Assembly: GCA_964354495.1 (NCBI GenBank)
Contig: CAYHAA010000003.1
Coordinates: 100,507 to 132,506, forward strand
From: an uncultured archaeon
Lineage (GTDB): Archaea > Asgardarchaeota > Thorarchaeia > Thorarchaeales > Thorarchaeaceae
DNA length: 32,000 nucleotides
Direction of reading: 5' to 3'
The notes beneath the pieces were generated by a model that was given only the letters and a program-made list of their open reading frames with translations, did not search any database and was not told the origin of the DNA. The position numbers and the translations under genes were made by a program. Position 1 is the stretch's first letter, and each line of letters opens with the position of its first letter. Below are positions 14,645 through 21,825 of the stretch, piece by piece.

Positions 14645-15982
14645 ATGGAGACTCCACATATGAGTAAACACAAGGAACTTCACGATCAGGTCTTTAAATT
14701 ATTAGAGAGTCATGACACATGGATGTCAAAAACCATCAATCTCATTGCCTCGGAGAACGTGAGTTCGCCAGCAGTCAGATCAGCAATAGTATGCGACTTC
14801 AGAGACCGCTATGCAGAGGGCTGGCCGGGAGAGAGAGTCTATGCAGGATGCAAGTACATAGACCAAGTCGAGCTGATTGCCATTGACCTTACGAAGAAAC
14901 TGTTCAAGGCGGAGTTTGCAGATGTTCGACCAGTTTCGGGCGTCGTCGCCAATCTTGCAATGTATACCGCAGTCATGGAGCCACTGGACAGAATGATGGC
15001 GCTATCCATTGCCCATGGAGGCCATATCTCTCACGCAAGGAAGGACCTCGGTGGCACCGCAGGTCAGATACGTGGCCACAAGGTACGCAATTGGGTGTTT
15101 GATGAGAAGGAGTTCAATATTGACGTTGATGCCAATATCAAACAGATAAGGGAACTACAAGAAAAGGGCGATGAGATCAAGTTCCTGCTCTTTGGCGGAA
15201 GCGTATTTCCATTTCCACACCCAGTGAAGGAGTTCCGTGAGATTGCAGACGAGTACGGGATGACGATTGGCTATGACTCCGCTCATGTCTCTGGTCTGAT
15301 TGCCAGTGGTTTCTTCCAGGACCCCCTGAGAGAGGGCGCAGACATCGTGACCGCATCGACCCACAAGACAATGCCGGGACCGCAGCACGGGATCATTCTG
15401 GCCAAGGAGAAGTTTGCTGATGCCATCAAGCGTGCCTCATTCCCAGGTCTGTTGAGCAATCACCATCTGCACAATGTTGCAGGCCTAGCTATTGCACTCA
15501 CTGAGATGATGGAGTTCGGAGTGCCCTATAGCAAGCAGATTATGAAGAACGCGAAGGCATTGGCTCAGTCCCTTCATGAGAGAGGCTGGCAGGTCATTGC
15601 CGAGCACAAGGGTTTCACTCAGTCGCATGTAATTCTCGTAGATGTCACAGAAACACCATTGAGTGATGGAGCGGCTGTCGAAAAGACTCTGGAGAACGCC
15701 AACATAGTCATCAACCGCAATCTTCTCCCATGGGATAAGAAGAGAGGCCGGGACTACAAGGCACCAGGCGGAATTCGACTTGGTACTAGTGAGATGACCC
15801 GACTGGGAATGAAGGAGTCAGAGATGGATGCGATAGCAGAGCTCATGACACGAGTGGTCATGAAGGGAGAAGATGTCAAGAAGATTGCAGCAGAGGTCGG
15901 TGAGTTCCGCAAGAACTACCAGAAAGTGCACTTTGCCTTTGATACTGAGACTCCGGCATATGCACATCTTAGATTCAAGTAG
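14645..15982 (+). CDS. glyA: Serine hydroxymethyltransferase (archaeal type); true start may be ATG 14660
   Basis: Motifs NLIASEN, RYAEG, GGHISH, YDSAHVSGL, ASTHKT (PLP lysine), PGPQHG and GIRLGT. Confidence 0.97.
   Translation: METPHMSKHKELHDQVFKLLESHDTWMSKTINLIASENVSSPAVRSAIVCDFRDRYAEGWPGERVYAGCKYIDQVELIAIDLTKKLFKAEFADVRPVSGVVANLAMYTAVMEPLDRMMALSIAHGGHISHARKDLGGTAGQIRGHKVRNWVFDEKEFNIDVDANIKQIRELQEKGDEIKFLLFGGSVFPFPHPVKEFREIADEYGMTIGYDSAHVSGLIASGFFQDPLREGADIVTASTHKTMPGPQHGIILAKEKFADAIKRASFPGLLSNHHLHNVAGLAIALTEMMEFGVPYSKQIMKNAKALAQSLHERGWQVIAEHKGFTQSHVILVDVTETPLSDGAAVEKTLENANIVINRNLLPWDKKRGRDYKAPGGIRLGTSEMTRLGMKESEMDAIAELMTRVVMKGEDVKKIAAEVGEFRKNYQKVHFAFDTETPAYAHLRFK
15860..15891 (+). repeat. 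Direct repeat copy 1 (candidate attL core inside the glyA 3' end)
   Basis: ATGAAGGGAGAAGATGTCAAGAAGATTGCAGC matches 21368-21399 at 31 of 32 nt, including a 23-nt exact stretch (15869-15891 = 21377-21399). Confidence 0.85.
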
Positions 15983-16008
15983 TCCAGAAGCATCTAGGAA
16001 GTTTCCAG

Positions 16009-16305
16009 ATGAACATCAAAGAAGCCCAAGATCTGATTTGAAGGATATACTTTGAGAGAAACAAACAGAGAGGAGTGGAACGCACTCTTCTCAGAACATA
16101 CCAAGAACTAGGAGAACTCACTGATGCGATTATGAAGGAGAAGGCTCAGGCAGATATTGAAGACGAGCTTGCTGATGTATTTGCCTGGGTAATCTCCATA
16201 GCAAATCTTCTTGATATGGAACTTGGATCGGCACTTCTAAAGAGATACAGTAATGCATGTTCAAAGCGTGGTTCTTTGCCATGTAAATCTGCAGATACTA
16301 GATGA
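16009..16305 (+). pseudogene. mazG: Degenerate MazG-like nucleotide pyrophosphohydrolase
   Basis: ATG 16009 gives MNIKEAQDLI*RIYFERNKQRGVERTLLRTYQELGEL...EDELADVFAW. An in-frame TGA at 16039-16041 aligns with an Arg of the intact copy at 21523. The C-terminal CSKCKQSPCSC is reduced to CSKRGSLPCKS. Confidence 0.85.
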
Positions 16306-16468
16306 GAAATAGGACTATATTCATTGGAACCAAGGTATTCTTTTTCTAAAGAAACCATAGATGGTCCCAAGGCTTTGTGCAATTGCCTTTTTTTCATAAC
16401 ATTTCAGTTATCTTACTTGCAGGCACGATCCTTTTACGCAACGCATCTTCTGGTTGTTTCACCTTTGC

Positions 16469-17662
16469 TTAAATAACCGAAAAAACATATTGCACACAAT
16501 TTTGCTGAGTTGCGAATACTAGTCCAATACGTTTTTTCACTATTAGAGATGATATCGTAGCCACGAGAATGGATCCAGCGAAGAGCCACATGATGTCGCT
16601 TAGAGAAGGCTTTGAAGTGCTTGAGGTCATGAATGATTCAAGACCAGCCAATCCATACACACCCATGTCATATTGGGTTCCAGTCTTTGCATCAAGATAT
16701 AATGAGCTGACATAGTCCGATTTGATGGACACGAGCCAAGCAAGTCGATACCCGTAGCCCGTTGGTGTCCAAGTTCTGTGGAATATTAGAGCCGTCGAGA
16801 GAATTTCAAATACTGACAGATTCTCGGGACCTTTGAGGTAGTCTATCGCGCATTGCTCAGCTCTTATTGGAGAGATAATCCTCTCTTTCGGTATTCTATC
16901 AACGTGCACCCACCAATAACTAAATTCGAGGATAGCTGCTGCTTCAAGGTCCATATAGAGCCAAACTCCACTATCCTCAATGAGTGTATCATTAACACTG
17001 TTGAAAAAAGATATCCGATACACATTATGATGAAATGCATAATTGTAGACAATGGACGGACCAACGTATAGGGCATGTGGTGAAAGTGTGTAATTGAATT
17101 GACGTAGGAAATTAGACGCAAGTTGTTCGACTTGATCTGAAGTGGCATAGTTGCTCTCATTGGTATCTGGTATAAAGGGCGAACTGCCACTAGACCAAAC
17201 GGATGCGAACGAGTCGACTTTTCCAGACATGGCATTTACTCCCACATAAGTAGACAGGTTCGCTCCGATGAATTGAAAGCGCCAACTTCCATCATCAAGA
17301 GTTGTCCAACCTGTGTTTATTGAGAGATTGACATCGGCTAAATACCAGACCTTTGAAAGGAAATCAACAGCCGCAGAAATCGCCATACTCTCATTCACTG
17401 TTTCAAGACCATCGTAATCAGACTCCATTGTGATTGATGTTTCTGTTTCAACAACCGGAAACTGGGGAAAAACAACGGGGTCTGGTTCTGACCTGACTAA
17501 CTCTGCGAAGATGGACTCAGTGACGGGCTCCCCCCTCAGCGTGACTAAGTGTGAAGGATTTCCTGAAACATGAACAGCTACAAAGGGCAATATCAATCCG
17601 GCTAATACAATTAGGGTAATGGTGAGGATTACCTCTCTATTGCTATTAATAACTGACATCAA
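16469..17662 (-). CDS. Exported/membrane-anchored protein, PepSY/YcdB-like repeats (tentative)
   Basis: N-terminal hydrophobic helix and C-terminal TM helix (IMWLFAGSILVATISSLIV). Repeated 'A...A..FL' helices followed by beta-strands, ending in LAWLV...LYLDAKTG, a PepSY-like signature. Confidence 0.6.
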   Translation of the reverse strand: MMSVINSNREVILTITLIVLAGLILPFVAVHVSGNPSHLVTLRGEPVTESIFAELVRSEPDPVVFPQFPVVETETSITMESDYDGLETVNESMAISAAVDFLSKVWYLADVNLSINTGWTTLDDGSWRFQFIGANLSTYVGVNAMSGKVDSFASVWSSGSSPFIPDTNESNYATSDQVEQLASNFLRQFNYTLSPHALYVGPSIVYNYAFHHNVYRISFFNSVNDTLIEDSGVWLYMDLEAAAILEFSYWWVHVDRIPKERIISPIRAEQCAIDYLKGPENLSVFEILSTALIFHRTWTPTGYGYRLAWLVSIKSDYVSSLYLDAKTGTQYDMGVYGLAGLESFMTSSTSKPSLSDIMWLFAGSILVATISSLIVKKRIGLVFATQQNCVQYVFSVI

Positions 17663-17734
17663 ATGACTACGCCTGTCTGGCTATTACGATGAATTCGCTA
17701 ATTAGTCTAGTTTTGGAGCAACGTTGAGCAACAT

Positions 17735-21264: not shown

Positions 21265-21364
21265 TCGTTTCCCTCATGCTTATCTGAATAGGTTTTCACT
21301 CGATTTATATCATTATAAAGTATGATTTCGAGAGTCGCGTACCGTATAGACACAAACTCAAGCG

Positions 21365-21484
21365 GTTATGAAGGGCGAAGATGTCAAGAAGATTGCAGCT
21401 GAGATCGAAGAGTTTCGCAAGGACTATCAGAAGGTGCATTTTGCCTTTGACACTCCAGCCTATGCTCATCTCAGGTTCAAGTGA
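21365..21484 (+). pseudogene. glyA: Headless duplicate of the last ~39 codons of glyA (contains the candidate attR core 21368-21399)
   Basis: Translates to VMKGEDVKKIAAEIEEFRKDYQKVHFAFDTPAYAHLRFK*, versus VMKGEDVKKIAAEVGEFRKNYQKVHFAFDTETPAYAHLRFK* in the full gene. Similarity stops just upstream of about 21361. Confidence 0.92.
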
Positions 21485-21508
21485 GGGCTCGACGGTGCTT
21501 GAGCCCTC
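21483..21508 (+). other. Stem-loop immediately after the glyA-tail stop
   Basis: GAGGGCTC-gacggtgctt-GAGCCCTC is a perfect 8-bp inverted repeat. There is no U-tract, so its function is unclear. Confidence 0.5.
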
Positions 21509-21522
21509 TGCGGGGGTATTCT

Positions 21523-21825
21523 ATGAAGATTGAAGATGCACAGGAAATGATGAGAAGAGTCTATCTTGAAAGGGACAGAGCCAGAGGCGTGAAGGGCACT
21601 CTTCAGAGAACAAAGGAAGAACTTGCAGAGCTTAGCAAGGCAATCCTCAAAGGTGACAATACAGCAGCTTTGGAAGAAGAGGTGGCTGACGTCTTTGCAT
21701 GGCTCTGCTCCCTTGCAAATCTTCTTACTATCGACGTGTCTGAGGCGTTCTACAAGAAGTACACAGATGCTTGTTCCAAGTGCAAGCAGAGTCCATGTTC
21801 TTGTCCGATAGAGCCCAGAGAATGA
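21523..21825 (+). CDS. mazG: MazG-like nucleotide pyrophosphohydrolase with C-terminal Cys cluster (intact copy)
   Basis: EELAEL...EEEVADVFAWL MazG motifs and CSKCKQSPCSCP tail. I chose ATG 21523 over the ORF-track start 21481 because it aligns with the first copy. Confidence 0.88.
   Translation: MKIEDAQEMMRRVYLERDRARGVKGTLQRTKEELAELSKAILKGDNTAALEEEVADVFAWLCSLANLLTIDVSEAFYKKYTDACSKCKQSPCSCPIEPRE

Follow-up and report, generated by a model that had tools for sequence, protein, structure and literature searches.

Duplicated gene ends around a protease-gene island at glyA in a Thorarchaeote genome point to insertion by a single homologous crossover

The region described here is a window of 32,000 nt (C3:100507-132506), the whole stretch of DNA that was analysed, from the metagenome-assembled genome (MAG) of an uncultured Thorarchaeote (G000; 3.3 Mb in 51 contigs, with an estimated completeness of 97.7% and an estimated contamination of 3.84%). 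Close homologues carry database names that place the genome in Thorarchaeota, among the Asgard archaea. The window contains the essential gene glyA, which encodes serine hydroxymethyltransferase, and an island of about 5.5 kb enclosed by two copies of the end of glyA and of the adjacent gene mazG. The copies are in direct orientation and spaced 5,508 nt apart, and the glyA share of the duplication is ~44 codons. The first copy (tail A) is the end of the working glyA and is followed by a broken mazG (mazG-A). The second (tail B) is headless, with a stop codon two codons 5' of the start of homology, and is followed by an intact mazG (mazG-B). Between the copies lie four minus-strand genes with a GC content of 0.41, compared with 0.477 genome-wide. 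This layout was first proposed from the nucleotide sequence of the window alone (the original prediction); the duplication, its spacing and the broken and intact states of the two mazG copies are all confirmed, and every count was reproduced. The island is foreign, and it was probably inserted into the 3' end of glyA by a single, Campbell-type crossover through shared homology, with no integrase involved. The coordinates of the features are given in Table 1.

Table 1. Features of the glyA island and its surroundings (positions refer to the window unless a contig is named).
Feature	Position	Strand	Remarks
glyA (serine hydroxymethyltransferase)	14645..15982	+	445 aa; Pfam SHMT, E 3.5e-82
Tail A, left repeat copy	15848..15982	+	44 codons + stop
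Inferred crossover interval, native-like to foreign-like	15901..15925	+	
Patch from an A-type Thorarchaeota chromosome	15965..16363	+	glyA stop region, spacer, mazG-A, 58 nt of downstream spacer
mazG-A, pseudogene	16009..16305	+	Pfam MazG; in-frame TGA at 16039-16041
Cargo gene 1, membrane protein, possibly PepSY-like (weak)	16469..17662	-	397 aa; no Pfam match
Cargo gene 2, winged-helix (ArsR-like, weak)	17735..18211	-	158 aa; hydrophobic C-terminal segments
Cargo gene 3, S8 subtilase	18337..20076	-	579 aa; N-terminal hydrophobic leader; Pfam Peptidase_S8, 1.1e-48
Cargo gene 4, Pol-beta-type nucleotidyltransferase	20518..21264	-	248 aa; Pfam NTP_transf_2 / Polbeta
Tail B, headless glyA tail	21356..21484	+	42 codons + stop; 6-nt deletion at 21447/21448
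mazG-B, native, intact	21523..21825	+	Pfam MazG
Separate insertion in the mazG-Sec61beta spacer	21826..30840		outside the glyA island
GNAT	22020-22985	+	in the second insertion
LAGLIDADG-type giant protein	23053-26487	-	in the second insertion
1028-aa protein	26484-29570	-	in the second insertion
Full carboxyltransferase gene	C4:5126-6688	-	then a paralogous cassette, then headless 3' copies

A repeat search resolves the duplication into two blocks, one of 99 nt at 85% identity and one of 71 nt at 75% identity within mazG. BLAST merges both into an alignment of ~420 nt at 69% identity. The 84 matches observed over the 99 nt of the first block were reached by none of 10,000 shuffles. Counted from 15860 and 21368, the two tails are identical at 31 of their first 32 nucleotides, and the longest exact run between them (23 nt, 15869-15891) falls inside this stretch. 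Beyond it they differ by 12 synonymous and three non-synonymous codons (V/I, G/E and N/D), by one 6-nt indel and by the stop codon (TAG in tail A, TGA in tail B), and they encode 40 and 38 residues, respectively. Over 42 codons the Nei-Gojobori method gives 14.5 synonymous and 5.5 non-synonymous differences (pS 0.565, pN 0.055), with an omega of 0.05 and a dS of ~1. The low pN relative to pS indicates that both tails evolved as working glyA ends, which upholds the earlier argument that the excess of synonymous change reflects function in different lineages. The 6 nt missing from tail B are present in contigs of other sequencing runs. They were lost later, through slippage in a GACACT repeat, and the population remains polymorphic for the deletion, as expected because tail B is no longer translated. 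In mazG-A the reading frame is broken by a single CGA>TGA change at a codon that is CGA in relatives.

In at least 15 congeneric genomes the gene immediately after glyA is a mazG of the B type, which is 64–91% identical to mazG-B at the amino acid level and only 44–53% identical to mazG-A. No cargo within 10 kb and no second glyA tail is found in any of these genomes, and a search of 28 genomes of the genus returned no A-type copy of mazG. The site is therefore empty in the relatives, and in the window the target gene is kept whole by an end borne on the element. The empty site agrees with the one that had been predicted in that glyA is followed by an intact mazG. Its tail, however, ends in a 44-codon form (...F[DE]T[ED]T[PD]AYAHLRF[KRM]) and not in the ...FDTPAY that had been expected, and the GNAT gene anticipated after mazG does not belong to it: in the closest relative mazG is followed after 192 nt by Sec61beta, and the GNAT gene of the window is part of a second insertion.

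The closest island-free relative is G012, whose glyA body is ~90% identical to that of the window at the nucleotide level (dS 0.45) and whose mazG product is 91% identical to that of mazG-B (dS 0.355). In phylogenetic trees, mazG-B is the sister of the G012 gene (support 98/94), and the glyA body groups with G012 and with L071, a contig of another metagenome (98/98). The copy mazG-A falls outside the clade of the genus (99/91), in a group that also contains L071 and P0003 (99/92); a 76-aa mazG-A query is 91% identical to the intact, 98-aa P0003. An intact A-type mazG is found directly 3' of a full glyA in metagenome contigs L063-L070, where it is followed by Sec61beta, eIF2alpha, Nop10, STT3 and GcvH/T, and the same glyA-mazG backbone occurs in more distant A-type relatives. 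Sliding identity to G012 is ~90% through the glyA body and 53–63% after 15965. Identity to L063 is ~79% through the glyA body and 85–93% from 15965 to ~16363, where homology ends; the window is otherwise collinear with L063, and homology is regained at 30841 with Sec61beta. Both the clade of mazG-A and the flip in identity at the end of glyA bear out the proposal that the incoming DNA held the glyA tail and mazG of another lineage, and the homology can be traced to the orthologous glyA-mazG locus of L063-L070.

The two deep mazG clades (A and B, ~49% identity) also conflict with the glyA tree. By glyA, the L063 lineage (L063:5229-6887) falls inside the genus, yet it has an A-type mazG and an unusual glyA tail end (..DAGTPAYEHLRFK). 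This discordance suggests older exchanges at the same boundary.

A vertically inherited tandem duplication of the glyA tail and mazG, with the cargo inserted later, would likewise leave two copies in direct orientation. However, no relative carries the duplication, the two mazG genes are 49% identical and fall in different clades, and the dS between the tails is ~1. The trees and the empty sites together rule this explanation out, and we give it next to no probability.

The origin of each part of the two tails was mapped with informative sites, defined as positions at which the tails differ and G012, the single close relative available, agrees with one of them. There are 19 such sites, and G012 follows the pattern AAAABAABABA|BBBBBBBB. 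It agrees with copy A at 8 of the 11 sites before 15919 and with copy B at all eight sites after it, and this position is the best split (Fisher p 0.0034; p 0.008 by permutation over all splits). Distances taken half by half show the same switch: tail A differs from G012 at 5/60 and then 12/72 positions, and tail B at 10/60 and then 5/66. The second half of tail A is closest to L071 (5/72). The working tail is thus native up to ~15919 and foreign thereafter; in the headless tail the order is the opposite. The flanking repeats are homologous segments of different origin, each of them a chimera of resident and incoming DNA, and such opposite mosaics are the signature of a single reciprocal crossover of the Campbell type. 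In the working glyA, the last ~20–25 codons were contributed by the island; the gene body and the initial part of its tail are native. The prediction of a chimeric glyA is sustained by this switch, but its suggestion that the 31/32-nt stretch served as the crossover core is not: the switch lies at ~15901-15925, 10–35 nt 3' of that stretch, where identical runs are no longer than 6 nt.

Under the reading that we favour, the incoming molecule would have consisted of a protease cassette joined to a ~515-nt piece of another Thorarchaeote chromosome, spanning glyA from codon ~402 to the stop, mazG and a further 58 nt. If this molecule was circular, or recombined ends-in, the homologous recombination machinery of the host could have joined it to the chromosome by a single reciprocal exchange between the carried piece and its resident glyA-mazG counterpart. 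The working gene would then combine a native head with the incoming tail and, past the cargo, the headless incoming start would run into the native tail and the native mazG. The incoming mazG would be redundant and would for that reason have decayed. A further exchange, between the repeats, could free the circle, and the island could in this way move among related hosts with no recombinase of its own. Some route of DNA transfer between cells is presumed. The insertion is recent.

A rival explanation is a one-sided, homology-facilitated illegitimate recombination with a linear donor, anchored by homology in glyA on the left and illegitimate on the right, in which case tail B would be purely native. 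Such one-sided recombination has been proposed for the displacement of effector genes of type VI secretion systems (T6SS), where it leaves 3' remnants (PMC5361080). The junction at 21355/21356 has no homology on the cargo side, as this explanation would have it, and tail B as a whole differs from G012 at 15 of 126 positions, which is near the 9.5% divergence of the glyA body. However, the agreement of G012 with copy A, and not with copy B, at 8 of the 11 early informative sites is unexpected if tail B is purely native, and we regard one-sided insertion as improbable.

A second alternative is site-specific integration. The island would then be a decayed or non-autonomous remnant, similar to a cis-mobilizable element (CIME), whose integrase has been lost or acts in trans and whose attP, carrying a glyA 3' end, recombined with attB in the resident gene. 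The architecture is classical for such an event, with a restored 3' end, flanking direct repeats, empty sites in relatives and a 23-nt exact stretch within the 31/32-nt match, and the mosaic of both copies is equally expected. Integration into the 3'-distal parts of archaeal protein-coding genes is documented for 14 of 68 elements (PMC6563490), and tyrosine recombinases are found in 8 of 28 genomes of the genus. However, no recombinase family is matched by any of the four cargo proteins, and the tyrosine recombinase family PF00589 has no match in the whole G000 genome, although all 14 of 14 control genomes match. For tyrosine recombinases, the earlier statement that no integrase is visible extends from the cargo to the genome. 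The repeat is ~470 nt long, is imperfect and includes a whole neighbouring gene, compared with att sites of 8–69 bp in archaea and 11 bp in Asgard elements. The one candidate for an att core, the 23-nt run, does not coincide with the switch, which falls among the short identical runs outside the best-conserved stretch, and the island is known from one other host only. No tRNA gene that might serve as an integration target is present in the window. The blank PF00589 result in a 97.7%-complete genome also means that G000 appears without a XerA-type gene.

The whole structure is present at 100% identity in Logan contigs of runs ERR3804373 (in a contig of 109,945 nt) and ERR4334727, and at 99.9% identity in ERR4334728. 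The sequencing runs were examined as contigs, some of them covering small shares of the stretch as short contigs; such short contigs from other runs bridge position 16363, and one of 367 nt bridges the right junction at 21355/21356. An assembly artefact that joined two strains or species at the conserved glyA tail could be suspected in a MAG of 51 contigs with 3.84% contamination, the more so as the switch lies in a conserved stretch. However, the contigs of the three runs were assembled separately and agree, both junctions are bridged in further contigs, and L071 spans the left junction against another host background. These contigs rule out a chimeric assembly, for which the remaining chance is very slight. 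Neither of the two findings named beforehand as fatal to the proposal, a chimeric assembly or a vertically inherited duplication, was thus seen. In X1 and X2, pieces of glyA and of GNAT at ~90% identity occur next to island pieces at 99–100% identity; these could not be assigned to a single organism and, like the parts of the stretch without cover, were left out of the evidence.

Contig L071 (JGI 3300038552), from a diverged host, shares the left junction and, with it, the island's left end; this is the sole other host found to carry the island. Its glyA body is 87.9% identical to that of the window (791/900, dS 0.71), and its island part is 95.7% identical (507/530). In mazG-A the dS is 0.016, with seven non-synonymous changes and one synonymous change. 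This dS, set against 0.71 in glyA, makes the island far younger than the split between the hosts and shows that it has moved horizontally between hosts. In L071 mazG-A is inactivated by loss of the start codon (ATG to ACG) and does not have the stop codon seen in the window, which implies two independent inactivations of a redundant gene. The crossover in L071 seems to lie nearer the stop codon than that in the window. Regeneration of a circle through the repeats would explain how the same island came to be in two hosts with apparently different crossover points.

Scars of the same kind are found at other genes. In the sister species G014 (L038:3736-5850), a second copy of the last 39 mazG codons lies 1.7 kb downstream, with genes for a methyltransferase and a membrane protein enclosed between the copies. 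Nucleotide identity between the copies is 82%, and 18.5 of the ~27 estimated substitutions between them are synonymous (pS 0.80, pN 0.09). In G000, contigs C10 and C4 overlap by 55 nt within a copy of a carboxyltransferase gene, and the joined contigs (C4:1-6700, C10:92000-110015) contain six headless carboxyltransferase tails that start at codons 154, 398, 445, ~174-197, ~476 and ~478. The tails are 85–94% identical in protein sequence, and the cargo between them is unrelated (for example AbiEi/AbiEii, GNAT and winged helix-turn-helix (wHTH) genes). Same-strand downstream arrays of carboxyltransferase ends also occur in G015, G004, G039, G014, G011 and G005. Downstream of a DUF35-like Zn-ribbon/OB gene (C10:32223-33155, minus strand) lie about five displaced fragments of its 3' part, at about 22.5, 20.8, 10.0, 7.5 and 5.0 kb (C10:4963-33155), and the last ~34 codons of a gene for a 128-aa protein (C18:9571-13715) are repeated 3.8 kb downstream at 90% identity. 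A single case of the 5' type was found (C4:14650-18043), in which a second copy of the head of an FAD-dependent reductase-like gene lies 2 kb upstream of it; scars at 3' ends far outnumber those at 5' ends.

Across these insertions the length of the fragments is variable, the junctions are arbitrary, the displaced ends form arrays and the cargo is unrelated from one insertion to the next. No k-mer of at least 8 nt is common to at least three of six cargo-side junctions. The varying fragment lengths and the lack of a common junction motif favour homologous recombination over an integrase like that of e14. Three options had originally been left for the mobilisation of the island, namely action in trans, loss of the enzyme and homologous recombination, and for the same two reasons it is the third that is now preferred. 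The glyA gene, which had been taken as an unusual attachment site, is probably not a dedicated one, as the scar is also present at mazG in a sister species, at the carboxyltransferase gene, at the DUF35-like gene and at further sites. Site-specific integration is hard to reconcile with fragment starts that range over codons 154-490, with the absence of a shared junction motif and with wholly different cargo. The excess of 3'-type over 5'-type scars is the main point in its favour, as it would fit an unknown or trans-acting enzyme. On balance we consider site-specific integration unlikely.

Several observations weigh against insertion by homologous recombination. The mosaic test is based on 19 sites and one close relative, and its first four A-like sites come from the ragged edge at which the homology begins. 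The homology itself is 69–85% identical, with a longest exact run of 23 nt; in most organisms studied, homologous recombination works poorly on such a substrate. The excess of 3' scars is what integrase-borne elements yield, and here selection is needed to explain it. The tyrosine recombinases of the 8 of 28 genus genomes could act in trans, and two small (~200-aa) open reading frames (ORFs) of the serine recombinase/resolvase type are present on other contigs of G000. Neither a circular form nor an empty-site variant was seen among the contigs, to which the examination of the runs was confined. A donor in which mazG-A is followed by the cassette was not found in a scan of metagenome contigs for orf397, which returned only 63%-identical homologues located elsewhere. 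The cassette is also absent beside the A-type mazG genes P0003, P0004, P0008 and P0024, the neighbours of which are Sec61beta, a cupin gene or a LAGLIDADG/DUF87 pair.

Campbell-type single-crossover 'pop-in' of non-replicating circles is in common use in laboratory genetics. As in that procedure, duplicated homology flanks the glyA insert, with incoming and resident sequence combined in both copies; unlike it, the event at glyA is natural and took place between diverged (homeologous) sequences. In Streptococcus thermophilus, the integrative and conjugative element (ICE) ICESt1 and its related CIME accumulate in tandem at the 3' end of fda; the CIME has short exact att sites and relies on the integrase of a related ICE. 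The glyA locus is similar in that a small island without recombination genes lies at the 3' end of a housekeeping gene and in that arrays arise by repeated use of one site, but no short exact att sites and no integrase were found here. The element e14 and phage 21 integrate into the 3' end of icd in Escherichia coli and bring a replacement end. Thaumarchaeal integrated mobile genetic elements (iMGEs) integrate in the 3' ends of protein-coding genes and have att sites of 8–69 bp (PMC6563490), and the known mobile elements of Asgard archaea have tyrosine integrases and short att motifs of 11 bp (PMC11529989). With e14, phage 21 and the thaumarchaeal iMGEs the island shares a target that is kept whole by an element-borne end, flanking direct repeats and empty sites in relatives. 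It differs from them in that no integrase was found, in that the ~470-nt repeat is 69–85% identical and includes a second gene, and in that the boundary of the fragment varies.

The closest parallels are with systems that displace gene ends. In the model of C-terminal displacement for rhs genes, which fits the glyA locus best, host recombination inserts an episomal circle that bears a variable length of a conserved gene together with downstream genes, and the former end of the gene is pushed downstream (Jackson et al. 2009; PMC2935791); for T6SS effector genes a sequential displacement by one-sided, homology-facilitated recombination has been proposed (Kirchberger et al. 2017; PMC5361080). As in rhs and T6SS loci, strings of 5'-truncated 3' fragments, variable in length and interspersed with other genes, trail behind a complete gene, and no integrase is present. 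In the rhs and T6SS systems, however, the tips are different toxins accompanied by immunity genes, and it is the tip that is under selection, whereas here, in an Asgard archaeon, housekeeping genes are the targets (glyA, mazG and the carboxyltransferase gene). The incoming tail leaves the encoded protein almost unchanged (omega 0.05), and what is delivered is the unrelated cargo that follows; the two tails are the same glyA end with three substitutions and a two-residue gap, and not alternative toxin tips with immunity genes. What is new relative to displacement of the rhs type is that the process occurs at housekeeping genes and appears to be general in an Asgard genus.

How the large, mosaic genomes of Asgard archaea acquire genes is poorly understood, and the locus provides a dated and well-bounded example of gene gain. 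Its scars point to recombination through carried homology, and their recurrence across the genus is a pattern that can be counted. A tentative extension is that Thorarchaeota, and perhaps the wider Asgard group, might routinely gain cassettes without a dedicated recombinase. Circles with pieces of genes would pop in and out by host recombination, spread between species and leave fossil ends behind housekeeping genes, and the process may be fed by the VirB4-like/LAGLIDADG DNA-handling modules of the neighbouring insertion hot spot. If true, this would represent a general integrase-free mode of island mobility. Displaced tails also have practical consequences: they break assemblies (contigs C10 and C4 end inside one) and create spurious small ORFs and pseudogenes, and chimeric genes such as glyA can mislead phylogenies.

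The four cargo genes are predicted to form an extracellular-protease module, consisting of the S8 subtilase, a PepSY-like membrane protein, a membrane-associated wHTH protein and the nucleotidyltransferase. The assignment of cargo gene 1 is weak: a paralogue matches PepSY at E 0.0019, under the cut-off, and an Atlas lead scores 0.78. A paralogue of cargo gene 2 matches HTH_20 at 3.9e-06, and these two genes are paired in other contigs as well. An additional 85-aa ORF lies between the subtilase and nucleotidyltransferase genes (20112-20369, minus strand) and is also called as a gene on the Logan contigs. A role of the cargo in defence is unsupported, as PADLOC returned only generic subtilase/IetS and nucleotidyltransferase matches.

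The genome contains three copies of the protease cassette, all located in variable regions. One paralogous copy (C4:695-4973, in the order S8, wHTH, membrane protein, nucleotidyltransferase) lies between the full carboxyltransferase gene and a headless copy, and the carboxyltransferase copies that flank it have a pS of 0.82 and a pN of 0.07. This cassette and that of the glyA island are circular permutations of one another, and no common end motifs were found in a comparison of the two. A third protease/nucleotidyltransferase cassette lies ~5–16 kb upstream of the window (C3:84000-100600). A direct repeat around it (C3:84819/95431) was considered as a displaced gene tail and rejected, as it is a non-coding element of ~100 nt.

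Downstream of mazG-B, the spacer between mazG and Sec61beta holds a second insertion of ~9 kb and is an insertion hot spot in its own right. In G012, G013, G011, G018 and G019 this spacer measures about 60–190 nt. Other relatives have 1.3–9 kb of varied content in it, often a LAGLIDADG-type giant gene with a large (~1000-aa) ATPase-like partner. A third mazG tail near Sec61beta, of the kind seen in G014, was not detected by tblastn, and a 20-nt match at 30181 is attributable to chance. There are only three LAGLIDADG-type genes in G000. One of them lies ~1.2 kb past mazG-B (~1.6 kb past the headless tail), and another lies ~80 nt upstream of the carboxyltransferase gene.

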